NCBI GenBank assembly: GCA_902496445.1
Contig: CABVAZ010000002.1
Coordinates: 4,925-68,924 of the forward strand
Direction: 5' to 3'
From: an uncultured Prevotella sp.
GTDB lineage: Bacteria; Bacteroidota; Bacteroidia; Bacteroidales; Bacteroidaceae
Length of the DNA: 64,000 nt
Position numbers and translations under genes: made by a program. Under the pieces are notes generated by a model that was not told the DNA's origin, did no database searches, and saw only the letters and a list, made by a program, of their open reading frames with translations. This document shows positions 30,926 to 64,000 of the stretch, piece after piece; position 1 is the first letter of the stretch; each line of letters begins with the position of its first letter.

Positions 30926-33655
30926 CTATCTGCGTGCCACCTTATAGGTGGTTGTCTTTCCGTTGGTGTCTTTCGTGCGCACCACATACACTTCGCCGGG
31001 CAGCTTGGCCAGTGGCAGCTTGCTCACCGCAAGCCCCTTGCAGCGACCCTCAGCCACCTTTCTGCCGTCGAGGGTGTACATCTCATAGCTCACGGCCTGT
31101 GCCTGCGGGGTTGCCTCAATGCCTGTAGCCTCACCCGTCACGGCCACGTTGAGTGTGCGTGTCAGGCTGTCGTTGTCGCCGTCGGTCACGGTCAGAGCAA
31201 TGCTGTTGAGCGTTGCCGCCTGCCCAGTGGGCCGTATGACGAGCATGCTGTCTTGCTCCGTGCTCAGGCTGAGCGCGTTTCCGTCATACTGCCAGGTATA
31301 GGTCGGCGATTTGGTAAAGCCGGCAAAGAGCGACTTCATGTTCACTTTTGCCGTTTCAGCGGGTGCCAGCACCCTGTGCTCCTCAGCCATCCAGTTCAGG
31401 TAGTCCTCCAGTTCGGTATAGCCGTCGTGGTTGCTGTCGGCATTGTTATTGGCCGTGTTGGGGTCGGTGCCCGTTATCTTCTCAAACCAGTCGGGTATGC
31501 CGTCCTGGTCGGTGTCATAGCCTTCGGGTCGCGATTCCTCGGCAAAGAGCTCCCATCCTCCGGCATCCTCCTCGTTGTCTATCTCGCCTTTGATGCCCGA
31601 CAAGCTGCCTTTATACGTCCACGAGCGGTCTCTTGTCTCGCGCACCATGCGCAGGTCGTGGTCGTCTCTCATGGGTTGGGTGGCTCCGGCACACGAGAGC
31701 ACCTTCTTATATGCCAGTTCGGGGCTGTCTATGGTGGCATGTGACTCAAAGTAAGGAGCCGTTCCCCAATACGTCCAGTCTACGGTTTGCTTGGAACTTA
31801 TCTGCACCGACTTCATGTCTTTGGCATCCTTGTCTATCTTTCCGGCCAGATTGTCTCTGATGTTGTTGTGCAGGTATGCGCTTTGCGTGCCCTTTCCGGT
31901 GCCTTCCAGTTGCAGGGTGAAGATGCGGTGTATCTTTACTGCCGGGCCCTCCTTATAGTAGTTGCCCACGAAGTTCACCTCGTGTGCTCCGCCGTCAGTG
32001 GTTCTTGCGCCCCAGTTGTAGCACACATTATTAAATATATCCAGCTTTCCGGCATAATATCCGTTGCCGTCCAGTCCGCCGCCCATGCTCCAGTTGCGTC
32101 CGTAGCAGTCTGCGAGCAGGTTGTGATGAAACGATCCTGTCTCACCGCCTATAGTGGCAGCGTAGCCGTGGTTGGTGCCTTCGGAGTAGTTTTTGTGATG
32201 GGCTATGCCCAGAGCCTCGGCTATCATGCTGTTCTGGAAGGTGATGTTTTTGGCCGAGCGGCTGGAGAATGTCTCGTCAGTGCCCCATGCCGCCGTGACG
32301 TGGTCTGCTATGGCGTTGTCAGATCCCGACAGTCCCATGGCGTTGCCCGTTTGCTCCGGTGTGCCCAGTCCGCGATGCGCTCGCAAGAATCTGATGACGT
32401 TGTCGTTGCCGAAGTTCACGTTGCAGTGCTTCAAGCAGATGCCCTTGCCCGGTGCCGTCTGTCCGGCCAGCGTGATGTTGGGATTAGAGAAGACGGCAGA
32501 AAAGTCCATGACGATGAGCCCCGACACGTCGAACACAATGGTGCGTGGCCCCTCCACCTGGGTCAGACCGTAGAGCAGTGAGCCCGGTGTGGCCTCGTTG
32601 CTCAGGTTGGTTACGTGATATACTGTGCCGCCGCGCCCTCCTTTGGCAAAGCGGCCGTAGCCCTCGGCACCCGGAAAGGCCAGCTGGCGGGGCTGAAAAC
32701 GCCACACCGAGGCATCATATTCCTGTCCCTGGGCATCCACCTCCTTCACCTTCCAGTAATAGGTGTTCATGCTGTAGAGCCCGCTCAACGAGTAAGATGT
32801 ATCGGTAAGCAGCCCCTTGTCCTCCATGTTATTGATGTCAGTGCCTATGAAGAGATGGTGCTTCACGGCCTTGTCGGCCTTCTTCCATGTGAGTGTCACC
32901 GTTCCGCCGTCGCAGTTGGCATGAACATCATAGTCGGCAGGGTAGGGGTTTGAGGCCATCGTGGCCGGATTGCCCTCGTCGAAGGCGATAGCGTTGAGAA
33001 ATACAGAGGATGTGTAGTAGGGGCTTGTGCTGCTATAGTCGGTAGCAGCGTCGGGTGTGCTGCGATAGTCTATGGTCACGGGCCTTCCCTCCTGAACGTT
33101 GAAGCGCACGTAAGACGTTGCGCTCTCTGCCGCGCTCGTCATGTTGCATGTCTGGCTTACGCCCTCTTGCGCCAACACGCCGTCTACATACACGTTGAGC
33201 TTGGGCCCCGCATAGTTGGTGGGATTGTTGTGATAGGCCAGCAGGGTGTGCTCGCCGGGCGTCAGTCCGCTCACGATGAGCTCCAGCTCACCCACCGGTC
33301 CTTGCAGCTTATGGGTCTCACCGTCGTTGCTGGTGCTGATGGTCTCAATGCCGTCGCCCACCAGCTTGTCGTTATCTTGCGTTATCTTCTTGCTCCATCC
33401 GCAGCCCAGCGTGTTGCCACCCGAATGGCTCCCGCTCTTCACCACAATCTTTATGCCGTCGAGAGTCATCGAGTCGGCCAGGCAAGTCTTTGGAAATCCC
33501 GGAACGGTGTTCACCGCCCCGGCCCATGCCGTATAGCCGTCGGCTGTTACTTGTGCGGCGTTCCGGCCCGAAAAGTTAAAGTCTATTTTCTGCGCATTGG
33601 CCGCCGAGGCCATCACGAGAGACGCTAAAAGCGCAGTTGTCTTCTTCATATTCAT
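30926..33655 (-). CDS. T9SS-sorted right-handed beta-helix protein, pectate/polysaccharide-lyase-like, with a thrombospondin-type-3 calcium-binding repeat
   Basis: Signal peptide MNMKKTTALLASLVMASAANAQ. A beta-helix/PL1-like segment (GSDNAIADHVTAAWGTDETFSSRSAKNITFQNSMIAEALG) is present. DTDQDGIPDW is a DxDxDG Ca-binding repeat. The C-terminus ...KLPGEVYVVRTKDTNGKTTTYKVARR is a T9SS CTD. Confidence 0.6.
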   Translation of the reverse strand: MNMKKTTALLASLVMASAANAQKIDFNFSGRNAAQVTADGYTAWAGAVNTVPGFPKTCLADSMTLDGIKIVVKSGSHSGGNTLGCGWSKKITQDNDKLVGDGIETISTSNDGETHKLQGPVGELELIVSGLTPGEHTLLAYHNNPTNYAGPKLNVYVDGVLAQEGVSQTCNMTSAAESATSYVRFNVQEGRPVTIDYRSTPDAATDYSSTSPYYTSSVFLNAIAFDEGNPATMASNPYPADYDVHANCDGGTVTLTWKKADKAVKHHLFIGTDINNMEDKGLLTDTSYSLSGLYSMNTYYWKVKEVDAQGQEYDASVWRFQPRQLAFPGAEGYGRFAKGGRGGTVYHVTNLSNEATPGSLLYGLTQVEGPRTIVFDVSGLIVMDFSAVFSNPNITLAGQTAPGKGICLKHCNVNFGNDNVIRFLRAHRGLGTPEQTGNAMGLSGSDNAIADHVTAAWGTDETFSSRSAKNITFQNSMIAEALGIAHHKNYSEGTNHGYAATIGGETGSFHHNLLADCYGRNWSMGGGLDGNGYYAGKLDIFNNVCYNWGARTTDGGAHEVNFVGNYYKEGPAVKIHRIFTLQLEGTGKGTQSAYLHNNIRDNLAGKIDKDAKDMKSVQISSKQTVDWTYWGTAPYFESHATIDSPELAYKKVLSCAGATQPMRDDHDLRMVRETRDRSWTYKGSLSGIKGEIDNEEDAGGWELFAEESRPEGYDTDQDGIPDWFEKITGTDPNTANNNADSNHDGYTELEDYLNWMAEEHRVLAPAETAKVNMKSLFAGFTKSPTYTWQYDGNALSLSTEQDSMLVIRPTGQAATLNSIALTVTDGDNDSLTRTLNVAVTGEATGIEATPQAQAVSYEMYTLDGRKVAEGRCKGLAVSKLPLAKLPGEVYVVRTKDTNGKTTTYKVARR

Positions 33656-33859
33656 GTTTGGATGTTAGGTTTTTATTTTTTGTTATGGGACTCGTTAAGA
33701 GTCAACATGCACTATATAGTAGACGTGTGAGCTGCGATTTTGTACGCATCTTTGGATAAATGAAATAGCAATATTTATTCTTCTGTGGTCTGATGACAAG
33801 TTTCTCACGTTGTGATAAATATTTACATGACGCACAATGTTAAGCACACTATTCGATGA

Positions 33860-34030
33860 AATGGGGCATTTTGAGCCGTAAAACCACCTTTTTTGGCTCG
33901 CGAAAGTGCCTATTTCGCCACGTGAAAATGCCTGTTTTGAAAGGTGAAAAAATGGGTACTGAAAATCATTTCGCAACTCTTTGGCATACAACCCTTTGCG
34001 TAAAGGGCTTGCGAAACAATGATGATGGGA
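33860..34030. repeat. Intergenic repeat element, copy 1. It has periodicity of about 22 nt and shares motifs with 63390-63660.
   Basis: cgcgaaagtgcctatttcgccacgtgaaaatgcctgttttgaaaggtgaaaaaatggg is about 77% identical without gaps to 63581-63626. ggcttgcgaaacaa is also shared. Confidence 0.5.
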
Positions 34031-34140
34031 GATTGGGGTATGAGCTTTGAAGATAAATTTTTACAGCATGAAGCCTTCATACCCCGCTCCTTGTGCACGA
34101 AAGATGCTCGTTCACAAGGAACGGATGAGGCTTCATGGCC

Positions 34141-35400
34141 TTAGAGAGAGGTGATGAGCAGCCACACATTGAGTGCGCTCACGATGGCGGCCAGACTATA
34201 TAGGAAGACTGTGTTCCACGGTTTGTTGGCATACTTGCCCATGACGCGCTTGGAAGAGGTGAGACTTACCTGCAAGAATACGGTGAAGGGCAGTTGTATG
34301 CTGAGCACCATCTGCGAGATGAGCAGCCCCTTGAAGGCATCGCCAATGAAGAAGATGACGAGCAAGGCTATGCCCAATGAGAGCACGACGCCCACGGCAG
34401 AGTGGGGGTCCTTGGCGTTATAACTCTCCTGAAACAGTCCTGAGAAGATACTTCCCGCTGCCATTCCGCTCGTGATGGTGCTGGATATGCCGGCCAGCAG
34501 CAGGGCTATGGCAAAGATGTTGGCAGCGTTGTTGCCCAGCAAAGGCTCGAGCATGGCCTGTGCCTGCGCCAGTTCGTCTACGTGCTCGCCCCTTGCAAAG
34601 AAGGTACTTGCTGCCAGCAGAATCATGGCAGAGTTGATAGCCCATCCCACAAGCATGGAAAAGAGGGTGTCGGCAAACTCATATTTCAGCATGTGCTGTA
34701 TGCGGTCGTCGCCTTTCAGGTTGATTTCGCGGCTCTGTATCACCTCAGAATGTAAGAAGAGATTGTGCGGCATGACCACCGCTCCCAGCACGCTCATGAT
34801 GATGAGCAGCGAGCCTTGCGGCACGGAAGGCACCACGGCACAAGTCGCTGCCTGCCCCCAGTCTACGTGAACCAGAAACAACTCATAGATGAACGACAGG
34901 CCGATGAGCGACACAAAGCCTATGATGGCGCGCTCCATGCGCTTGTAAGAATTGGTGAAGAGCATGATGAGAACGGCCACAGTGACGAGTATGGAGCCCG
35001 TAGGTATGCTGATGCCCAGCAGCATTTGCAGGGCTATGGCGCCTCCCAGTATCTCTGCCAGCGACGTGGATATGCTGGCCAGCAGCGCCGTCACCACAAT
35101 GGGGCGCCCCAGCCAGCGGGGAGCATACTTCACGGCGGCCTCGCTGAGGCACAATCCCGTCACTATGCCCAGGTGGGCAACGTTGTGCTGAAGGGCAATG
35201 AGCATGATGGTGGAGAGCGTTACCACCCACAACAGGGCATAACCATACTCTGACCCGGCTGCGAAGTTGCTGGCCCAGTTGCCCGGATCGATAAATCCCA
35301 CGGTGACAAGCAGGCCCGGTCCGATGTATTTAAAGATGTCTAAGGCACCCAGCACATGTGGGTGTGTTTTGGAATGCAGTTCTTTCAGAAGATTCTTCAT
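34141..35400 (-). CDS. mntH: NRAMP-family divalent metal (Mn2+/Fe2+) transporter
   Basis: GPGLLVTVGFIDPGNWASNFAAGSEYGY and ...MPHNLFLHSE are Nramp signature regions. Confidence 0.9.
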   Translation of the reverse strand: MKNLLKELHSKTHPHVLGALDIFKYIGPGLLVTVGFIDPGNWASNFAAGSEYGYALLWVVTLSTIMLIALQHNVAHLGIVTGLCLSEAAVKYAPRWLGRPIVVTALLASISTSLAEILGGAIALQMLLGISIPTGSILVTVAVLIMLFTNSYKRMERAIIGFVSLIGLSFIYELFLVHVDWGQAATCAVVPSVPQGSLLIIMSVLGAVVMPHNLFLHSEVIQSREINLKGDDRIQHMLKYEFADTLFSMLVGWAINSAMILLAASTFFARGEHVDELAQAQAMLEPLLGNNAANIFAIALLLAGISSTITSGMAAGSIFSGLFQESYNAKDPHSAVGVVLSLGIALLVIFFIGDAFKGLLISQMVLSIQLPFTVFLQVSLTSSKRVMGKYANKPWNTVFLYSLAAIVSALNVWLLITSL

Positions 35401-35692
35401 ATCGTTTTTTGCTGACAAAAATAAGAAATAAAGGCGATACATGAAAGCATTTGGATGACAAATCGACCCACTTCACTTTGTTATCGTTATTATTGGGTAG
35501 GATAACGAATGTTAAATTGGCTGTATGGGGACGCTTGCTTACGGAGTATAAGCTGCTTTTTTATGCTGTCAGACCGAATGACTGATAAGTGACTGTAAGG
35601 AGTATTTAGGTTTGTTTTTTACACTTTTAACGGGAAAAGAAGATGAATTAAGCGAATATTGTGTAACTTTGGAAACTGAAAAGCAGATTTAT

Positions 35693-36664
35693 ATGGTTAG
35701 AAAGAATTATTCTATAAACAAGAACCGAACTGAGAAATGGAAGGCTGATGTACAGAAATCTGTGATGTTTTATAATGAGTGGTTTCTGAACTTCGCACCT
35801 AAAGCTTATGTCAATGCTCGCAAGGAGGCCATTGATAAGGTTGAGAATATATTCCATGATATTGAATGTTTCAATTCGTTGTCTGTTGATATATTGAAGA
35901 ATAATCCTGATGCCATTACGATACTTCGATTGTCTACCACTCCACCATTGGCTCGTGACAGACTAATAGGGTTGTCTGGCGTGTCTGCCAATCTGATAGA
36001 TAAAATGGAAGAAGGGAGATTTCCGCCCAGAATGTCGCAAGAAGAGATAGACGAATCGCTTGAACGTATCATAGAAATTATCCATAGTCTGTTAGACTAT
36101 GATATGATGCCGTGGCTTAAACAGAAATCTTATCCTCATGAAACAGACAGAAATCTGGCCATACAAGTTATAGGCGATCGCGTTTGTGGCTCACTTTCTG
36201 ATCCTATTATACGTAATGAGCAAGAGCGGCGCCAGCTGAATAGCATCGGCGATTATCTCAACAGAAAGGGTTATCGCTTTGTAGAATCGAATGCTATTGA
36301 AGATTTCCAAAACATGGAATGTGGAATGTATTCATTTCATCTTAAAGTGCTTGCGGAAAGAAGGGATGGTAAAAGCGTCAATATGCCCATTGATGTTGTC
36401 ATCAAACGTAAGAATGCGATAGCCGGCGAACTGCCTGTTTTGATTGAATGCAAGTCGGCCGGAGATTTCACAAATACCAACAAGCGGAGAAAAGAAGAAG
36501 CAATAAAGATAGAACAGTTGCAGTTGAAATATGGCCAGAAGATAGAGCTTGTGCTCTTTCTGTGTGGCTATTTTGATAGTGGATACCTGGGTTATGAGGC
36601 TGGCGAGGGTATCGACTGGATATGGGAGCATCGAATAGAGGATTTTAAAAAGCTGGGGATATAA
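35693..36664 (+). CDS. Type II restriction endonuclease with a PD-(D/E)xK fold. From memory it resembles the XamI family, so that assignment is tentative.
   Basis: The ...MPIDVVIKRKNAIAGELPVLIECKSAGDF... D/ExK core is present. Its stop overlaps the start of the adjacent methyltransferase (ataTAAATGaag). No signal peptide. The ORF-track start at 35612 is a TTG; the first in-frame ATG is at 35693. Confidence 0.55.
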   Translation: MVRKNYSINKNRTEKWKADVQKSVMFYNEWFLNFAPKAYVNARKEAIDKVENIFHDIECFNSLSVDILKNNPDAITILRLSTTPPLARDRLIGLSGVSANLIDKMEEGRFPPRMSQEEIDESLERIIEIIHSLLDYDMMPWLKQKSYPHETDRNLAIQVIGDRVCGSLSDPIIRNEQERRQLNSIGDYLNRKGYRFVESNAIEDFQNMECGMYSFHLKVLAERRDGKSVNMPIDVVIKRKNAIAGELPVLIECKSAGDFTNTNKRRKEEAIKIEQLQLKYGQKIELVLFLCGYFDSGYLGYEAGEGIDWIWEHRIEDFKKLGI

Positions 36665-38194
36665 ATGAAGGAAAGAGAATTAAAGCGCAAAAGCATACAA
36701 GATGCATTGGATGAACAGAAATCGCAGAAAGAGCGAAACGTCATGGGACAGTTCTCTACGCCCTATCTTCTTGCTCAAGACATTATGCGTTACATGCGTA
36801 ATCTGATAGGCAAAGACGACGTTTCGCTCATTGAGCCTGCAATAGGCATGGGAGTTTTCTATTCAGCCTTCATCGATGCGTTCTCTGCTGGTGGGCGTGC
36901 CCTTGGCTTTGAAATAGATCCTCACTACTTTAAACCTGCCAGTGAGTTTTGGAAAGGAACAAAGTTGGAGATGCGATGCGCTGATTTTCTTGCACAAAAA
37001 GCTGACGAGCAATTCGATATGTTAGTGGCTAATCCTCCATATATCCGCCATCATTATATTGAGACACAAACAAAGAAACGACTTCAACATGAAGTAATGA
37101 GTCAGACAGGCATTAAAATTTCCGGTCTCGCCGGCCTATATTGCTATTTCATGATGCTCTCTGCTCAGTGGTTAAAAGATGGCGGACTCTCTTGTTGGCT
37201 CGTACCCAGTGAATTCATGGACGTTAATTATGGTGTGGCTGTTAAACGTTATCTTTTGCAAAATGTAGAACTTCTTCATATCCATCGGTTTAAGGCTGAT
37301 GACCTGCAATTTGCTGATGCGTTGGTAAGCTCCTGTATTGTCGTTTTCCGAAAGAGTGTTCCTCCGAGTTGTCATGAGGTGAAATTCACCATAGGCGGAA
37401 CTATCAATAACCCTGAGACAATAAGAACAATTAAGGCGAACCAACTTAGGGCTGAAGACAAATGGACCAACTTGTTTAACCATGGACCTATACAAACGGA
37501 AGCGGAAGCTACGCTTGGCGACTTCTTTACGGTGAAACGAGGGGTGGCAACTGGGGATAATGGATTCTTTGTCATTGATAATGAGACCATTGATCGCTAT
37601 GAGATACCTAAGAATTTTCTGCGTCCCATACTGCCTAGTCCGCGTTATATCAAAGGCGACCACATAGAAAGCCGCAACGGCTTGCCCGTCGTAGACCAAC
37701 AGTTGTTTCTCTTCTGTTGTAATTTACCGGAAGAACGCATGAAGAAACTTTATCCGAAAGTATGGGAATATGTTATGTGTGGCTATGAGCGCGGCGTACA
37801 AAGAGGCTATATCTGTAGTAGACGTAACCCATGGTATTCTTGCGAAGAGCGTGAACCTGCGCCTTTCGTCGTGCCATATATGGGACGGGAGGAAGCAAGC
37901 AATCGGCTTTTCCGTTTTATACTGAATGACTCAAATGCCATAACTACTAACGTTTATTTGCTGCTTTATCCCAAAGCGCAATACGCTCAATGCTTGAAAG
38001 ACAAGGCTATACTGACTGAAGTGTGGCATGTGTTGAACACTATTCCCACTGAAACACTTTCAAGTAACGGCCGGTTTTATGGTGGAGGACTGCGCAAAAT
38101 GGAGCCTAAAGAACTCATGCAAACCCCAGCTACAGGCATCGCTTCGTTGCTAACGCATCGTGCATCATTTAAGCAGCTCACGTTTTTTGAATAG
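36665..38194 (+). CDS. N6-adenine DNA methyltransferase (gamma-class, Eco57I-like) of a type II restriction-modification system
   Basis: Motif I (LIEPAIGMGVF) and motif IV (VANPPYIRHH) are present. 509 aa. Translationally coupled to the endonuclease. Confidence 0.8.
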   Translation: MKERELKRKSIQDALDEQKSQKERNVMGQFSTPYLLAQDIMRYMRNLIGKDDVSLIEPAIGMGVFYSAFIDAFSAGGRALGFEIDPHYFKPASEFWKGTKLEMRCADFLAQKADEQFDMLVANPPYIRHHYIETQTKKRLQHEVMSQTGIKISGLAGLYCYFMMLSAQWLKDGGLSCWLVPSEFMDVNYGVAVKRYLLQNVELLHIHRFKADDLQFADALVSSCIVVFRKSVPPSCHEVKFTIGGTINNPETIRTIKANQLRAEDKWTNLFNHGPIQTEAEATLGDFFTVKRGVATGDNGFFVIDNETIDRYEIPKNFLRPILPSPRYIKGDHIESRNGLPVVDQQLFLFCCNLPEERMKKLYPKVWEYVMCGYERGVQRGYICSRRNPWYSCEEREPAPFVVPYMGREEASNRLFRFILNDSNAITTNVYLLLYPKAQYAQCLKDKAILTEVWHVLNTIPTETLSSNGRFYGGGLRKMEPKELMQTPATGIASLLTHRASFKQLTFFE

Positions 38195-49314: not shown

Positions 49315-49386
49315 GTCATTAGAAGAAGGGCTTGCGCATGATGCTTTCATCACGCGTAGCCCCGATTCTTAGCTCTTCATGAAAAG

Positions 49387-49425
49387 GCCTTCGCCAGCTT
49401 CATTGCAGGCGGAGGCTTTTTATTT
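49387..49425 (+). terminator. Rho-independent terminator after adhesin F
   Basis: gccttcgcc-agcttcattgca-ggcggaggc followed by ttttta ttt. Confidence 0.5.
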
Positions 49426-49636
49426 GCCCTTTCGCCGGCCCATAGCACCCTCCTTATTGCCTACAGTAAAGGGCGTGCAAGCACTTACAGCAAGGCACAT
49501 CAATAAGCAGGCCGAGTCCCTTGTAGCCCTCAGCAACCTCTGCATGGCTTGAAATGTCCTTATTTTGTCAACGCAAAAGGCCCGAACTCATTTTATAAAA
49601 GAGATACTGCCAGAAGCCTAAGTGGCCGATTTTAAA

Positions 49637-49727
49637 TAATAAAATAAATTATATTACATTATAATATAATCTATATCGTATTATAAAATAATTTATATTA
49701 CTTTATAAAATAAATTATATTATATCT
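49637..49727. repeat. AT-rich array of three copies of a 23-nt repeat (TATAAAATAAwTTATATTAywTy) in the long leader before the hypothetical/rpoN operon
   Basis: The copies are aataaaataaattatattacatt (49637), ttataaaataatttatattacttt (49681) and tataaaataaattatattatatc (49705). Two ctgaaaag boxes follow at about 49770 and 49791. Confidence 0.7.
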
Positions 49728-50088
49728 TATTTTGGGCACTTTCAGCCTATATCTGCCTACTATCTGCAGCTGAAAAGACATTGAACGGAGGCTGAAAAGT
49801 AAAACTTTCTTCGCAAAACTTTTCACTTTTTTGTCGCCAAACGGGAGCCCGGTGCTCACTAAGAAGCTGCAGTACAACTCGTTATACGCATTCCGGCAGA
49901 AAGCCTGAAAATTGTTTTGCGTGAGCAACACATGACGATCAATAAGCTATCCGGGCACTATGCTGATGCCATAGCACGCCGCCCGGCCTGCAATAACCCG
50001 TCACAAAGCGTGAAATGAAAGACAGAATGATTTGGCACTTTGCGCAAAAAGACTTATCTTTGCAACAAAACATACACGCGACAAACAA

Positions 50089-50736
50089 ATGGCTACACAT
50101 CCTTATTGGTCAGACGAATACTGGCTGCTGTTGCTTCAGCTCTATATGAAGAAGCCGGAGGGTATGAAGAAGCCCTTCGACCGCAGAGCAGTAGACCTGA
50201 GTTTGGAGTTGCACATTCCGCCGCTGGCACTCCATAAACTCATGTTCAGGCTCCGTCAGAGAGACGTTCCCTTCATCAACATGCTGTGGAATACGTATGA
50301 GGGCCATCCCCGTAAGCTGGAAAACGACGCGCGCAAGTTGCGTGCCATGCAAGGCTTTGGCCGCGCCAAGGACTTTTATGAGGGCGTGGAGCTGAACGAG
50401 ACGTTCGAAAAAGACTTCAAGCCGTTGCCGCAAAGGCCCAGGCTGAAGCCCGTCATGCTCATTATGATACTCGATTTGTACTTCCGGCTCACCGTGAACA
50501 CCATGGTGACAGACACCCCCGAGGTGCAACAGCTGGCGCGACTCTTGCGCCTCACGCCAGAGGAAGTGGCCGAGGTGCTCGACGTGTTCTGCTATTGCGA
50601 CCCCTATCTGAGCCGCGACGAGCTCTTTCTGAGCCCCCTGCTGGTGCCCTGCCAGCGCATCTGGAACCGCTATGGCAACGACAATCCTGAGCAGCTGGCC
50701 TCGCTTGCGGCACAGCTAACCGAATATTTCAAGTAA
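50089..50736 (+). CDS. Conserved hypothetical protein upstream of rpoN
   Basis: The ORF is open for 234 aa and MATHPYWSDEYW is the likely start. No recognisable motif was found. Confidence 0.5.
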   Translation: MATHPYWSDEYWLLLLQLYMKKPEGMKKPFDRRAVDLSLELHIPPLALHKLMFRLRQRDVPFINMLWNTYEGHPRKLENDARKLRAMQGFGRAKDFYEGVELNETFEKDFKPLPQRPRLKPVMLIMILDLYFRLTVNTMVTDTPEVQQLARLLRLTPEEVAEVLDVFCYCDPYLSRDELFLSPLLVPCQRIWNRYGNDNPEQLASLAAQLTEYFK

Positions 50737-56439: not shown

Positions 56440-58839
56440 ATGAAACGAATGATGATAGCCTGCTTGCTGGCTGCTATGGCATCGCTGGCACAGGCACAAC
56501 GGCAGGAGATAAACCTTAAAACGTGGCAGTTTTCGCACGACAAGGCATCGTGGCAAACGGTTAATGTGCCGCACGACTGGGCCATCAGCGGGCCTTTTGA
56601 CAAGAAGTGGGACTTGCAGACGGTGGCTATCGAGCAGAACGGAGAGACCGAGAAGACTGAGAAAAGCGGCCGGTCTGGCGCGCTGCCATGGATAGGTGAG
56701 GGATGGTATAAATGCTCTGTCAACCTGAAAGGCACTGCATATAAACATGCCTATCTGTGTTTTGACGGTGCCATGAGCGAACCTAAGGTGTATGTAAACG
56801 GTAAGCTGGCGGGCGAATGGGCCTACGGCTACAACGCTTTTCGCATAGATGCGACGCCCTATTTGCACGATGGCGACAACGAGATAAGCGTTCACCTCCG
56901 CAATTTAGAGGAGAGCAGCCGCTGGTATCCTGGTGCCGGCATCTACAGACCCGTGAAGCTGGTGCTTACGGGGGATGTGCGCATTGACCCGTGGCAGCTC
57001 TTTGTGCGCACCCTGAGCGCAGATTCGGCCACGGCAAGTGTGGCCATAGATGCTCAGGTGCTGGGGCTGGAAAAGCAAGACACGGCAAACAGCCGTCTAA
57101 AAATAGCTATTTTAGACGCTAATATGGTGCATATTGCAGAGCAAAATGCACTATTTGACAAGCAAGGAAGGGTACATGCAGTACTGAAAGTGCCCAACCC
57201 GCATCTCTGGTCGCCCGAAACACCTTATTTATATAAGGTGGTTGTGAAGGCCATCAGCCATGGTGAGACCCAAGACCAGTATGTCTTGAACACCGGAATA
57301 AGGACTATCAGCGTGAGCAAAGAGCATGGTTTTCAGCTCAATGGCGTAACCAGGAAGATAAAAGGCGTGTGCCTGCACCACGACCTGGGCCCTCTTGGTG
57401 CGGCAGTGAATAAGGCTGCACTCATCAGGCAGGTCAGAGAGATGAAGGAGATGGGTGCGGATGCTATCCGTACGAGCCATAACATGCCTTCAGAAATGCA
57501 GATGCAGGTGTGCGACTCTATGGGTATGATGGTCATGGCAGAGAGCTTTGACATGTGGAAATACCCCAAGGTGAAGAATGGTTACAGCCGTTTCTTTGAT
57601 GAATGGAGCGACCGCGACATCACCAACCTGGTGCTGCACCACCGCAACCACCCCGCCATCGTGATGTGGAGCATAGGCAACGAGATACCCGAACAGGGCA
57701 TGAAGGGCGGCCGCAACATAGCTATGCACTTGCAAGACATCTGTCATCAGCTAGACCCCACACGCCCCGTGACACAAGGTATGGACCGTGTGGACAACGC
57801 ACTGAGCACGGGTTTCGCACAAGTAATGGATATTCCGGGCTTCAACTACCGCGTAAACAAATACGAGATGGGCATCAAGAAGCTTTGGCAAGGTTATCTG
57901 TTAGGCTCCGAAACAGCCTCTACGGTATCTTCAAGAGGCGTTTATAAGTTTCCGGTAGAGTATTCTGCTCATCATACTTACCCCGACGGACAGTGCTCAG
58001 GCTATGACACGGAGTGGTGTTCATGGAGCAATCTGCCTGAAACAGACTTTATTGCGATGGACGATTATCCCTACACCATCGGACAATTCGTATGGACCGG
58101 CTTCGACTATCTGGGCGAACCAACCCCTTATGATGAGTATTGGCCGTCGCGAAGCAGCTACTTCGGCATCTGCGACTTGGCCGGGCTGCCCAAAGACAGA
58201 TATTATCTCTACCGCTCGGTATGGAACCATCAGAGCCACACCCTGCACCTTCTGCCTCACTGGACGTGGCCGGGCAGAGAGGGAAAGACCACTCCTGTGT
58301 ATTGTTACACCGACTATCCGGAGGCCGAACTGTTTGTGAATGGCAAGAGTCAGGGCCGTATCAAGAAGAACAAGCAGAGCATGTACGACCGCTATCGCCT
58401 GCGTTGGAACGATGTGAAGTATGAACCGGGTGAGCTGAAAGTGGTGGCCTATGATGCCAACGGCAAACGTGCGGGCGAAGAAACTGTGCGCACAGCGGGC
58501 ACACCGGCACGCCTCCGCCTCACTGCCGACCGTGGTTTTATACACGCCGATGGCACTGACCTGATGTTTGTTACCGTAGAGATGACCGACAAGAAGGGCA
58601 CTCTCTGTCCTGATGCCGATGATGAGCTGCTCTTTGATGTGTCTGGTGCGGGCACGTTCAAGGCCGTGTGCAATGGCGACGCCACATCTCTTGAGCCGTT
58701 CACGCAGCCCCGCATGAAGCTCTTCCACGGCAAGCTGGTGGTCATTGTGCAGGCTGCTGACGCGCCGGGCACGGCATGGCTCGATGTGAGAACAGCCGGC
58801 AAGCCCATCAAGCAGCGCCTGAGGCTCATCGTGAAGTAG
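56440..58839 (+). CDS. Glycoside hydrolase family 2 (beta-galactosidase/beta-glucuronidase-like), secreted
   Basis: Signal peptide MKRMMIACLLAAMASLAQAQ. The sugar-binding N-domain and TIM-barrel WSIGNEIPEQG (acid/base Glu) are present. 799 aa. Confidence 0.85.
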   Translation: MKRMMIACLLAAMASLAQAQRQEINLKTWQFSHDKASWQTVNVPHDWAISGPFDKKWDLQTVAIEQNGETEKTEKSGRSGALPWIGEGWYKCSVNLKGTAYKHAYLCFDGAMSEPKVYVNGKLAGEWAYGYNAFRIDATPYLHDGDNEISVHLRNLEESSRWYPGAGIYRPVKLVLTGDVRIDPWQLFVRTLSADSATASVAIDAQVLGLEKQDTANSRLKIAILDANMVHIAEQNALFDKQGRVHAVLKVPNPHLWSPETPYLYKVVVKAISHGETQDQYVLNTGIRTISVSKEHGFQLNGVTRKIKGVCLHHDLGPLGAAVNKAALIRQVREMKEMGADAIRTSHNMPSEMQMQVCDSMGMMVMAESFDMWKYPKVKNGYSRFFDEWSDRDITNLVLHHRNHPAIVMWSIGNEIPEQGMKGGRNIAMHLQDICHQLDPTRPVTQGMDRVDNALSTGFAQVMDIPGFNYRVNKYEMGIKKLWQGYLLGSETASTVSSRGVYKFPVEYSAHHTYPDGQCSGYDTEWCSWSNLPETDFIAMDDYPYTIGQFVWTGFDYLGEPTPYDEYWPSRSSYFGICDLAGLPKDRYYLYRSVWNHQSHTLHLLPHWTWPGREGKTTPVYCYTDYPEAELFVNGKSQGRIKKNKQSMYDRYRLRWNDVKYEPGELKVVAYDANGKRAGEETVRTAGTPARLRLTADRGFIHADGTDLMFVTVEMTDKKGTLCPDADDELLFDVSGAGTFKAVCNGDATSLEPFTQPRMKLFHGKLVVIVQAADAPGTAWLDVRTAGKPIKQRLRLIVK

Positions 58840-61732: not shown

Positions 61733-63265
61733 TTATGGTTGTTGAAAGGGGTTCTGACGGTTCATCTCCAATAGCTCTTCCATGATAGTGCGGCCGTTAG
61801 ACAGTCTGGGCACCTTGTGCTGGCCGCCCAGCTTGCCCTTCGACTTGAGCCAGTCGTTGAATAAATTCTTGCGGGCCACTATCACTTCGAGGGGCTGCAG
61901 CGTGACGTTGTGCGACCGTTTGGCCTCATAGTCGGAGTTGAGAGCCTGCAAACGCTTGTCAAGCGCCTCGGCAAAGTGCTGCAACGAGTCGGGTTCTTTG
62001 GCAAATTCTATGAGCCATTGATGCCTGCACTTGGCCTTATTGTCCATGTAAACGGGCGCTGTGGTATACTCCGACACCTCTGCTCCGGTCTGCTTGCAGG
62101 CATAGTCCAGTCCTTTCTCGGCGTTGTCCATAATCAGCTCTTCGCCAAAGGCATTGATGAAGTATTTTGTCCGGCCGGTGATGATGAACTTATAAGGGTT
62201 CCGGGAGGTGAATGTCACGGTGTCACCTATCTCATATCGCCACAGTCCGCACGATGTTGAGATGAGCATGGCATAGTTCTTGCCCGTCTCAACGCCCTCT
62301 AGCGGCACGATGTTGGGGTGCTCTGAGTGCAGTTCATCCATGGGGATGAACTCGTAGAACACGCCATAGTCGAGCATAAGCAGCATGCTGGCATCACCGG
62401 GGTCGTTCTGTATGCCGAAGAAACCCTCGCTTGCGTTGTAGGTTTCCATATAGTGCATGTCTGGCTTGGTGATGATTTGCTCGTATTGCTTACGGTAAGG
62501 GGTAAACGGAATTCCTCCGTGGAAGAACACTTCCAGGTTAGGCCACAGCTCTTGTATGTATTTCTTGCCGCTTATCTCAAGCATCCTGACCAGCACGGAG
62601 AGCATCCACGAGGGCACGCCACTGATGTTGGTCACGTTTTTGTGCATGGTTTCGCGTGCTATATGGTCGCGCTTCACCTCAAAGTCGCTCAGCAGAGCCG
62701 TTTCCTTACGAGGCACTCTGAAGAGATTGGCCACCGGATTCATGTTCTCTATGAGCACTGCGCTCAGGTCGCCCACGATAGAATTGGGCAGATTATAGTT
62801 GGGCGAGTGGCTCCCACCCAATATTAATGACTTGCCGTCGAACAACTTGCTCTTGGGATTGTTGCCCAGATAGAAGGCCACAACATCTCTCGGCCCCTGA
62901 TAATGTATCTGATGCAAGCCCTCGGGCGTGACGGGAATGAACTTCGATTTGTCGTTTGTGGTGCCCGAACTCTTGGCATACCACTTCACCATGCCGGGCC
63001 ACAGCACGTCTGTCTCGCCATGACGCATACGGTCTATGTCGATTTTCAAATCCTCATAAGTATTTACCGGCACGTTCTGCACAAAATCGTCGTAGCCGGT
63101 AGTAACGCCAAAGAGGTGCTTCCTGCCATATTCCGTGTTCTTGGCCTTGCTCAGAAGATAGGTCAGAACCTCGTGTTGCATGGCGTCGCCCTCTGCGTTA
63201 TATCGCTGGAGCTCACGCCTCCGCGACTTGAAAAGCAGCTTATCTGCTATACAGGTTAGACTCAT
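61733..63265 (-). CDS. GH3 auxin-responsive-promoter family protein (acyl-acid amido synthetase-like adenylating enzyme)
   Basis: YAKSSGTTNDKSKFIPVT is the adenylation SSGTT motif. 510 aa with the characteristic bacterial GH3 family layout. Confidence 0.8.
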   Translation of the reverse strand: MSLTCIADKLLFKSRRRELQRYNAEGDAMQHEVLTYLLSKAKNTEYGRKHLFGVTTGYDDFVQNVPVNTYEDLKIDIDRMRHGETDVLWPGMVKWYAKSSGTTNDKSKFIPVTPEGLHQIHYQGPRDVVAFYLGNNPKSKLFDGKSLILGGSHSPNYNLPNSIVGDLSAVLIENMNPVANLFRVPRKETALLSDFEVKRDHIARETMHKNVTNISGVPSWMLSVLVRMLEISGKKYIQELWPNLEVFFHGGIPFTPYRKQYEQIITKPDMHYMETYNASEGFFGIQNDPGDASMLLMLDYGVFYEFIPMDELHSEHPNIVPLEGVETGKNYAMLISTSCGLWRYEIGDTVTFTSRNPYKFIITGRTKYFINAFGEELIMDNAEKGLDYACKQTGAEVSEYTTAPVYMDNKAKCRHQWLIEFAKEPDSLQHFAEALDKRLQALNSDYEAKRSHNVTLQPLEVIVARKNLFNDWLKSKGKLGGQHKVPRLSNGRTIMEELLEMNRQNPFQQP

Positions 63266-63389
63266 TTAAATGATTGCTAATTGAACTACAAAGGTAAGGT
63301 AAACTTTCGTGATACCTTAATATTTTACTTATTTTAATATGTTATATGTCACATGAAAAGCTCTTACGCACTCACGGAAGAGACTGAAA

Positions 63390-63660
63390 GGCTTGCGAAA
63401 CAAGTTTACAAATCGTTTCTTGCCCCGCCGCTCGCCCGCCTTGGCCGGGCAAAAGCGCCTGCGCCGGCCTGCCTCACGCAGATGATGAAAAGACAGGAAA
63501 GATGGTTTGTGTAATCAGTTGGTAGACAGCGGGTTGTAGAAACAGTACAAACAGGCTTGCAAAAAGGCCTGTTTGAGCTCGTAAAAGTGCCTATTTTGCA
63601 AGGCGATAATGCCTGTTTGGGGAAGCAAGAAGGGCATTCTTGTCACGCCGAAAGCAATCG
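63390..63660. repeat. Intergenic repeat element, copy 2, related to 33860-34030
   Basis: aaaggcttgcgaaacaag, aaacaggc-ttgcaaaaag-gcctgttt (an 8-bp hairpin), gtaaaagtgcctattttgcaaggcgataatgcctgtttgggg and gaagggcattcttg all match copy 1. It lies upstream of the GH3 gene. Confidence 0.5.
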
Positions 63661-63696
63661 CCGGCCCGGCAAGAGTGCCCCAAGCAACCTTTAGGA

Positions 63697-64000
63697 TCAT
63701 GCGTAACTGTGCATACCCGTAAGAAAATAGTTTACGCCAAAGTAGGTCATCAGTAGCGTAAGAAAGGCCAGCAGCATGTAAACATGATAGAAAACGGGGC
63801 GGCGGAAGCGCTTATACAGCCCGCCGTGCAGAGGCAGAGCATACACCAGAAAGGTGATGAGGGCCCACGTCTCCTTTGAGTCCCAGCTCCAATAGGTGCC
63901 CCAGCTCACGTTGGCCCAGATGGCTCCGAGAAACATTCCGATGCCCAACGTGGCTACGGCAGGGTAGAGCATGAAGGCGCTGAGCACCTGCATGCCCGGC
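63697..64000 (-). CDS. ccsA: Cytochrome c biogenesis protein CcsA/ResC, C-terminal end; the gene continues beyond the window
   Basis: WANVSWGTYWSWDSKETWALITFLVYA carries the WGxxWxWD haem-handling tryptophan-rich motif. Polytopic. Confidence 0.7.
   Translation of the reverse strand, partial: PGMQVLSAFMLYPAVATLGIGMFLGAIWANVSWGTYWSWDSKETWALITFLVYALPLHGGLYKRFRRPVFYHVYMLLAFLTLLMTYFGVNYFLTGMHSYA

Follow-up and report, generated by a model that had tools for sequence, protein, structure and literature searches.

The window analysed here, a 64-kb stretch from an uncultured gut Prevotella with a GC content of 52%, holds two copies of a modular intergenic repeat. Copy 1 lies between the gene of an Nramp transporter and the gene of a 909-aa secreted protein, and copy 2 separates the GH3 gene from the 3′ end of a ResB/CcsA-type cytochrome c assembly gene. 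Both copies are located 125-395 nt upstream of a minus-strand gene. The two loci and their neighbours are as follows.

30926-33655, minus strand: gene of the 909-aa secreted protein (the T9SS lyase of the preliminary description), with a weak pectate-lyase-like match
about 33814-34065: copy 1 as a whole
34067-34137, minus strand: nested hairpin made of the inverted repeats I1 and I2, located immediately after the stop codon of the Nramp gene
34141-35442, minus strand: Nramp transporter gene, with its stop codon at 34141
61733-63265, minus strand: GH3 gene, of the auxin-type acyl-amido synthetase family (Pfam PF03321)
about 63385-63662: copy 2 as a whole
63658-63672, minus strand: GC hairpin resembling a terminator, located behind the ccsA-type gene and adjoining copy 2

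The flanking genes had been placed correctly in the preliminary description, and only a name was corrected: "GH3" stands for the acyl-amido synthetase family PF03321 and not for a glycoside hydrolase. The ccsA-type gene beside copy 2 matched Pfam Cytochrom_C_asm in the window, and both ResB and Cytochrom_C_asm in contig L114. The Nramp protein had 99% identity with proteins encoded on gut-metagenome contigs in ENA, and about 88% with those of many Prevotella. Next to its gene, at 35612-38194, a XamI-type restriction endonuclease gene with an adjacent Eco57I-like methyltransferase gene was observed, and the same arrangement occurred in the same-species contigs L001 and L002.

The two hairpins in the list are neighbours of the repeat and not parts of it. 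The double hairpin at 34067-34137 spans 71 nt, with outer arms of 10 bp and inner arms of 17 bp and without a clear T-run after it, and was conserved in L001 and L002. Upstream of the GH3 gene, a promoter-like TAccTTTG was located about 35 nt before the start codon and about 250 nt from the array of copy 2. Scans for sigma-70 promoters and terminators were uninformative for Bacteroidota. Both copies are intergenic, between genes of annotated type, and the ORFs overlapping them encode just 61-98 aa (33695-33991 on the minus strand, 33856-34050 on the plus strand, and 63515-63700 on the minus strand). One such short ORF was called as a gene in contig L114.

Shared motifs, periodicity and homologues

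All four motifs that had been listed as common to the two loci were found in place in both, as the following pairs.

aaagtgcctatttcgc at 33903 and aaagtgcctattttgc at 63584
aatgcctgttttg at 33926 and aatgcctgtttgg at 63608
ttgagccgtaaaa at 33872 and ttgagctcgtaaaa at 63574
GGCTTGCGAAACAA, a 14-mer, exact at 34006 (34006-34019) and at 63390

The best ungapped 43-mer (33895 against 63576) was 81% identical (35/43), for which 77% had been claimed. Comparison of the copies by blastn-short gave 35 nt at 85.7% identity (30/35) with an E-value of 0.02, and 0.09 for the 14-mer, and the significance of the two-copy similarity taken within the window alone was borderline. The reported periodicity of about 22 nt proved to be exactly 22 nt and was significant in both loci, with a lag-22 self-identity of 0.58 at 33860-33960 and 0.52 at 63550-63650, values reached by 0 of 2000 shuffles. 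Within the window, a lag-22 identity of at least 0.5 was found just in the two copies and in an AT-rich tandem repeat at 49596-49761. TRF left the 22-nt periodicity of both copies undetected since the units are too degenerate, whereas autocorrelation detected it. The unit GAAA[AG]TGCCT[AG]TTT[TC]G was said to recur three or four times in each copy, which was overstated: it was exact at 33902 and 33924 in copy 1 and occurred with one mismatch at 63583 and two mismatches at 63605 in copy 2, the rest being degenerate. Both small hairpins that had been described exist, namely cccttt-gcgt-aaaggg in copy 1, which was not conserved in L001 and L002, and aaacaggc-N10-gcctgttt in copy 2.

Homologues were found in other Prevotella. 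A strict two-unit pattern gave 0 matches in the species-representative genomes because it was too specific; even the same-species contig L001 differs from it at one fixed base. The loose pattern TGCCTRTTT-N13-TGCCTRTTT retrieved 102 loci, which were mostly chance matches and included three of P. aurantiaca and two of P. disiens. At these loci, the unit CAAAAGTGCCTRTTTTG recurred every 22 nt, often with a long hairpin of two inverted units at the end of the array. The scan of metagenomes returned just 2 unrelated low-GC contigs, and the scan of viruses returned 0 matches. A P. aurantiaca copy searched by BLAST against PLSDB matched 14 places on a 568-kb replicon of P. nigrescens. This replicon (NZ_CP082843.1) has been filed as "plasmid, non-mobilizable" but is a second chromosome rather than a plasmid, since rpsA, dnaB and pheS are carried on it; it also contains ribosomal protein genes and ftsK.

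An nhmmer profile built iteratively from oral loci alone (P. nigrescens, P. aurantiaca and P. disiens) matched both loci in the window, at 33866-33957 with 47.2 bits (E 6e-14) and at 63557-63653 with 43.1 bits (E 1e-12). For a full-length oral HMM, the best alignments were to the minus strand in copy 1 (34013 to 33870, E 2.5e-12) and to the plus strand in copy 2 (63556-63652, E 5e-12). The best null score was 11.7 bits in 6.4 Mb simulated with the composition of the window and 13.4 bits in 6.4 Mb simulated with that of both intergenic regions, and among 756 kb of loci pre-enriched for the core motif the scores outside Prevotella were at most 25 bits. The weight matrix (PWM) of the oral unit scored 31.1 bits at 63581, 22.0 bits at 33922 and 21.6 bits at 33900, and these three top sites in the window were all above the maximum of 200 simulations. 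There is a partial circularity in the profile, as the first oral copies were retrieved by a pattern derived from the window; this circularity is limited, since the P. nigrescens units with a GAGCCTG centre fail that pattern and the GYAAAAG...TTTTGC flanks were never in it. The suggestion of a REP/MITE-like family of dispersed intergenic repeats was thus supported by an HMM of oral Prevotella that finds both loci, and further copies and conservation in related species were clearly present.

Chance similarity of two AT-rich intergenic regions, which the marginal E-values obtained from the window alone would have allowed, was refuted by the family HMM (43-47 bits, with 13.4 bits as the highest null score in 12.8 Mb) and by a 22-nt periodicity above that of all shuffles, and has practically no probability left.

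PINSR anatomy and its decayed form in the window

PINSR has been described as an intergenic "incomplete repeat" of 188 bp (Naito et al. 2015, DNA Res 23:11, PMC4755523). According to that paper, each P. intermedia genome contains 177-184 copies, PCR was positive in P. nigrescens, P. falsenii and P. disiens, and the element is without terminal inverted repeats, coding capacity or known function; the portions of its text consulted contain no mention of a 22-nt modular anatomy. In P. intermedia, the published PINSR primers bracketed an array with 5 + 2 mismatches, giving a product of 150 bp against the published 149 bp. In addition, 11 oral copies have the PINSR-F head motif TGTAAAYATTTTT ahead of the modules, at a constant distance of 46-48 nt. 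Because the primers bracket the array and the head stands at a constant distance from it, the arrays are, judged by sequence, the interior of PINSR.

The consensus of this interior consists of five 22-nt modules, each formed by GCAAAA, a 7-nt centre, TTTTGC and a 3-nt linker, in either orientation. Two kinds of module centre predominate, A (GWGCCTR) and B (CCCAYTG), both of which occur either way round. The alternating A4 and T4 tracts, 11 bp apart, were the most conserved columns among 33 copies from six species, and the centres vary. An inverted pair of A modules forms an 18-bp hairpin between A and T runs. The tail of PINSR includes TTATCTTTACAA, and TGTAAATATTTTT is a candidate end sequence. 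The ends of the oral consensus, compared by eye, read TGTAAA...TTTACA with about 12/18 matches. No TSD, partner IS, transposase partner or empty site was identified for the repeat, and no RAYT was annotated in 200 kb of P. nigrescens (annotation only).

The corresponding parts of the window copies are as follows.

33856-33967, minus strand: core of copy 1, five 22-nt modules starting at about 33856, 33878, 33900, 33922 and 33944
33968-34051, minus strand: head-proximal part of copy 1, degenerate modules including the 14-mer GGCTTGCGAAACAA; the HMM alignment reaches 34013
33994-34009: strain-specific hairpin ccctttgcgtaaaggg in the head-proximal part of copy 1
34052-34065, minus strand: head-like motif TGTAAAAATTTATC, to be compared with the PINSR head TGTAAATATTTTTC
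33814-33861, minus strand: tail-like stretch of copy 1, CATTTCATCGAATAGTGTGCTTAACATTG from 33861 to 33833, followed by the motif TGTAAATATTTATC
63555-63662, plus strand: core of copy 2, modules starting at 63559, 63581, 63603 and about 63625
63385-63418, minus strand: left remnant of copy 2, TGTAAAC-TTGTTTCGCAAGCC, a head-like motif (match at 63410) abutting the 14-mer

The core of copy 1 follows the skeleton GYRAAA-N7-TTTYGS, with the centres GTGCCTA and ATGCCTG of type A and CCACCTT and AATGGGT of type B. On the minus strand, the 14-mer GGCTTGCGAAACAA corresponds to the 3′ half of a type-B module together with an inter-module junction (cATTGTTTCGC-AAG). The head-like motif was found by a motif search and by alignment with 11 full-length oral copies. 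It is located about 100 nt from the modules detected by the HMM, about 55 nt beyond the 46-48 nt of the oral copies, and because of this longer distance the assignment of 34052-34065 as the PINSR head is tentative. At the other end, the 14-nt motif recurs as TGTAAATATTTATC (33827 to 33814), which matches 34065 to 34052 at 13/14 positions in the same orientation; the flanking 14-nt motifs are thus direct and not inverted repeats. The sequence TTTCATCGAAT resembles the oral tail consensus TTTCATTTGAAT and may be read as a tail.

In copy 2, an inverted half-module ahead of the four modules gives the hairpin aaacaggc-N10-gcctgttt at 63545-63572. The 14-mer of its left remnant is located about 150 nt from the core, beyond a GC-rich stretch of about 90 nt, and this remnant may be the stump of a second, truncated element. 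Copy 2 has just weak head and tail remnants, and its orientation is ambiguous. The central inverted module pair is absent from both window copies, which are decayed, consisting mostly of direct units with poorly preserved head and tail.

By sequence, both window loci are homologous to the PINSR family. They have in common with it an intergenic, non-coding location, the same chain of 22-nt modules (HMM E-values of 1e-12 to 6e-14), the TGTAAA(A/T)ATTT motif resembling the head in copy 1, and probably spurious short ORFs called over the copies. They differ from it in their host, a gut Prevotella of 52% GC outside the clade of PINSR's name, in GCGAAA/TTTCGC stems, ATGCCTG centres and extra degenerate modules, and in a non-canonical head distance and the missing central inverted pair. 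Regarding the ORFs, two "hypothetical proteins" were annotated over PINSR copies in P. nigrescens (L110 33029-33274 and L113 23031-23444). Naito et al. (2015, PMC4755523) judged the ORFs over PINSR in P. intermedia strain 17 most likely non-coding, and the short ORFs over the window copies and over those of P. nigrescens are therefore probably spurious as well.

The nearest analogue in design is BrickBuilt, a MITE/minisatellite of P. gingivalis (Klein et al. 2015, PMC4596501). This Bacteroidales repeat, likewise intergenic, has a "leader" on one side and a "tail" on the other side of its internal tandem units of 22-23 nt, and many of its copies are partial (PMC4596501). Its 23-nt unit AGACCATAGTATCCTCTCATATG is unrelated in sequence to the window modules, and its units are near-identical and direct, whereas modules of the window type are degenerate and occur in both orientations. 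An identity of the window copies with BrickBuilt was rejected on account of the unrelated unit, and IS5-type terminal inverted repeats were absent near both loci. The enterobacterial REP/BIME and pneumococcal BOX elements likewise are extragenic, high-copy mosaic arrays of short palindromic modules with alternating orientations and hairpin potential. Hairpin formation by palindromic units, typical of REP/BIME, was strong in the oral copies (z -5 to -8) and weak in the window (z -0.7 to -2.9). The module sequence of PINSR and its 22-bp phasing with the A4/T4 skeleton are distinct from REP/BIME and BOX. The iterons of plasmid origins (direct repeats of about 17-22 bp) resemble PINSR only in a period of about 22 bp, with units on one helix face; in contrast, PINSR-type arrays occupy hundreds of chromosomal sites in mixed orientation and are not beside a rep gene or origin.

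Distribution, evolution and possible roles

In 200 kb of the P. nigrescens replicon, 21-23 arrays were counted, about one per 9 kb, and the window holds 2 copies in 64 kb. When the P. nigrescens intergenic regions of 150 nt or more were considered, PINSR was present in 13/38 of the tandem, 5/11 of the convergent and 2/14 of the divergent ones, the depletion of divergent regions being not significant (p 0.19). In tandem contexts, 7 elements had the direction of transcription and 7 the opposite one. This lack of orientation bias argues against a strand-specific role as small RNA, unidirectional promoter or terminator, and also against an operator for particular genes; the absence of bias is in keeping with a selfish interspersed repeat or with a symmetric role at the DNA level.

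Arrays also occur in P. aurantiaca and P. dentasini, beyond the P. intermedia/nigrescens clade of PINSR's name. P. aurantiaca JCM 15754 (L013, L061, L109) contained at least 4 PINSR-like arrays in 24 kb, 3 of them with the head-like motif (0-2 mismatches). This species is not among the PCR-positive species listed by Naito et al. (2015, PMC4755523), likely through primer mismatch. PCR-based absence calls for PINSR are therefore unreliable, and the repeat regarded as specific for the P. intermedia/nigrescens group has diverged relatives in a gut Prevotella, P. aurantiaca and P. dentasini, so that its origin is older, or its spread wider, than reported. These hosts widen the range of the family and do not speak against the PINSR membership of the window copies.

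Different 22-nt tandem arrays whose units include a mini-palindrome, for example TGCCTGTTTGCCCCAAACTCAA and GTTTCACCTATTGAAACTGCCT, were observed in other Bacteroidales: at L070 3450-3620 and L089 7646-7740 (Prevotella sp. SGB_5589), at L035 7312-7411 (Tannerellaceae) and at L095 3204-3300. The Tannerellaceae array scored 25 bits with the PINSR HMM. These arrays may indicate that modular repeats of 22 nt form a wider class.

Copy 1 was found at the same place in L001 and L002. Copy 2 was found in one further contig, L114, which is identical to the window and from the same strain and therefore adds no independent evidence. Copies 1 and 2 matched each other at 30/35 positions, and copy 1 matched the oral consensus at about 25/35 (hand count); the order of modules with GTGCCTA followed by ATGCCTG, common to both window copies, was unseen in the oral copies examined. 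Because the two copies are closer to each other than to the oral ones and have this module order in common, a duplication within this gut lineage is suggested. Comparison of the strains revealed a variable patch at 33936-34026 against L001 6376-6466, with 30/96 differences and 0 indels, in flanks that differ by about 4%. An inversion was rejected, since the reverse complement aligned worse, and DGR-like A-specific mutagenesis was rejected for the mixed substitution spectrum. The patch suggests short-tract conversion from another repeat copy.

At the site of copy 2, the regions upstream of the GH3 orthologues in bovine-gut Prevotella (a gap of 118 nt) and in P. intermedia contained no array; such loci without the element would represent an insertion-like distribution. 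P. dentasini carries a PINSR-like array (L118 3633-3703) about 300 nt upstream of its GH3 orthologue, a distance similar to that of copy 2, with GCGAAA/TTTCGC-type stems like those of the window module at 33900. The surroundings of that locus are not colinear with the window and its upstream neighbour gene differs, and the array near GH3 could be a coincidence or a conserved association. The comparison of orthologous sites for copy 1 was uninformative, as the Nramp synteny is not conserved in the species with 88% identity.

Both loci are probably old, partly decayed PINSR-type copies, that is, non-autonomous selfish repeats with at most generic local effects. To judge from its distribution, the family would have spread as a non-autonomous, REP/MITE-like selfish element via a putative mobilising activity, and the closer likeness of copies 1 and 2 to each other than to the oral copies suggests that it was active in this gut lineage. 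Conversion of a short tract by another copy would account for the strain-variable patch of about 90 nt in copy 1. At both sites the elements would be passengers between a terminator and the next promoter, and any effect would be generic (DNA curvature, a weak hairpin) rather than one that regulates the lyase or GH3 genes specifically.

It is unlikely that the arrays instead constitute functional DNA architecture, in which curved DNA, or sites phased at 22 bp (two helical turns), would be bound cooperatively by a nucleoid-associated or regulatory protein and act as insulators or modulators separating transcription units. The conservation of the A4-N7-T4-N7 skeleton above the centres in the 33 copies of six species would agree with such a role, as would the palindromic junction TTTTGC-NNN-GCAAAA, which is of the kind bound by dimers, the persistence of the modules in a distant lineage of 52% GC, the location of both window copies between a terminator-like hairpin and the promoter region of the next gene, and pairing counts above those of slid controls. 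These points are opposed by the lack of any preference for orientation or context, with about 1/3 of the long intergenic regions occupied, by the degeneracy of the window copies and by the related species that are without the element at orthologous sites. The module arrays are not known to have a protein partner. The more general proposition that PINSR-type arrays are a conserved architecture of phased A4/T4 tracts in 22-bp palindromic modules, protein-bound or mobilised as hairpins and maintained from oral to gut lineages, is equally doubtful. If the architecture were functional, the 22-23-nt modular arrays of other Bacteroidales would belong to one broader class. The explicit anatomy of 22-bp modules and A4/T4 tracts makes the hypotheses of protein binding, curvature and hairpin transposition testable.

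Folding differed between the oral copies and the window copies. The oral copies folded strongly (z -7.9 and -5.2), forming the 18-bp hairpin between A and U runs. In the 33-copy alignment, the 6-bp stems of each module and the long hairpin of U3/U4 were paired at about 77%, with slid controls at no more than 55%. The covariation was modest: the pair 61-87 was AU in 10, CG in 7 and UA in 3 copies, and the 3-17 pair within single modules covaried weakly (odds ratio 6.9, p 0.014). Single-strand hairpins could account for this pattern of pairing, and dyad-symmetric sites for proteins or a simple inverted duplication could do so just as well. In the window, plus-strand folding reached z values of about -2.9 and -2.8, and the strand co-transcribed with the flanking genes, with z -0.7 and -1.7, folded no better than shuffles.

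The elements might instead be bidirectional intrinsic terminators or RNA-stabilising hairpins kept for that role, in agreement with the strong hairpin of the oral copies, with some compensatory changes in the U3/U4 pairing, and with 18 of the 20 occupied long regions in P. nigrescens (tandem or convergent) adjoining at least one gene 3′ end. We regard this as improbable, as the window copies have no long hairpin and fold weakly on the transcribed strand, separate hairpins already follow the upstream genes, and the depletion of divergent regions did not reach significance.

The preliminary description also proposed a shared operator array or a small structured RNA. A common operator controlling the lyase-like and GH3 genes, or the gene of a small regulatory RNA, would suit the position of both copies upstream of a minus-strand gene and the P. 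dentasini array at a similar distance from GH3, but it is highly unlikely. The family fills about 1/3 of the long P. nigrescens intergenic regions in both orientations, and in other Prevotella the repeat adjoins dozens of unrelated genes. Moreover, the promoter-like TAccTTTG of GH3 is far from the array, and other GH3 orthologues (bovine-gut Prevotella, P. intermedia) are without the element. Against a small RNA, in addition to the weak folding, the Rfam scan that had been proposed as a check gave no match to the window copies: at gathering level, the window and 5 oral loci yielded no match except tRNAs, and searches by E-value yielded only chance-level matches. With both stretches recognised as PINSR-type copies, they need no longer be confused with the operator of a regulon, with a small RNA or with genes of small proteins.

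Two other places in the window were noted beside the copies. A third HMM match at 57092-57163 (14.7 bits, E 8e-4), which includes the perfect palindrome GTCTAAAAATAGCTATTTTAGAC, was considered a chance match; it falls within the gene of a GalB-like GH2 beta-galactosidase. At 49553-49603, in a region that may hold a decayed third copy, a PINSR-like junction, TATTTTGTCAACGCAAAAGG, was observed with an HMM match that was not significant (E 1.7). It stands just before the AT-rich tandem repeat, which at 49632-49722 has a period of 22 nt, the unit TTACATTATAAAATAAATTATA and 4.1 copies with 78% matches, and is located in a 775-nt intergenic region (49315-50090) upstream of a sigma-54 gene region.
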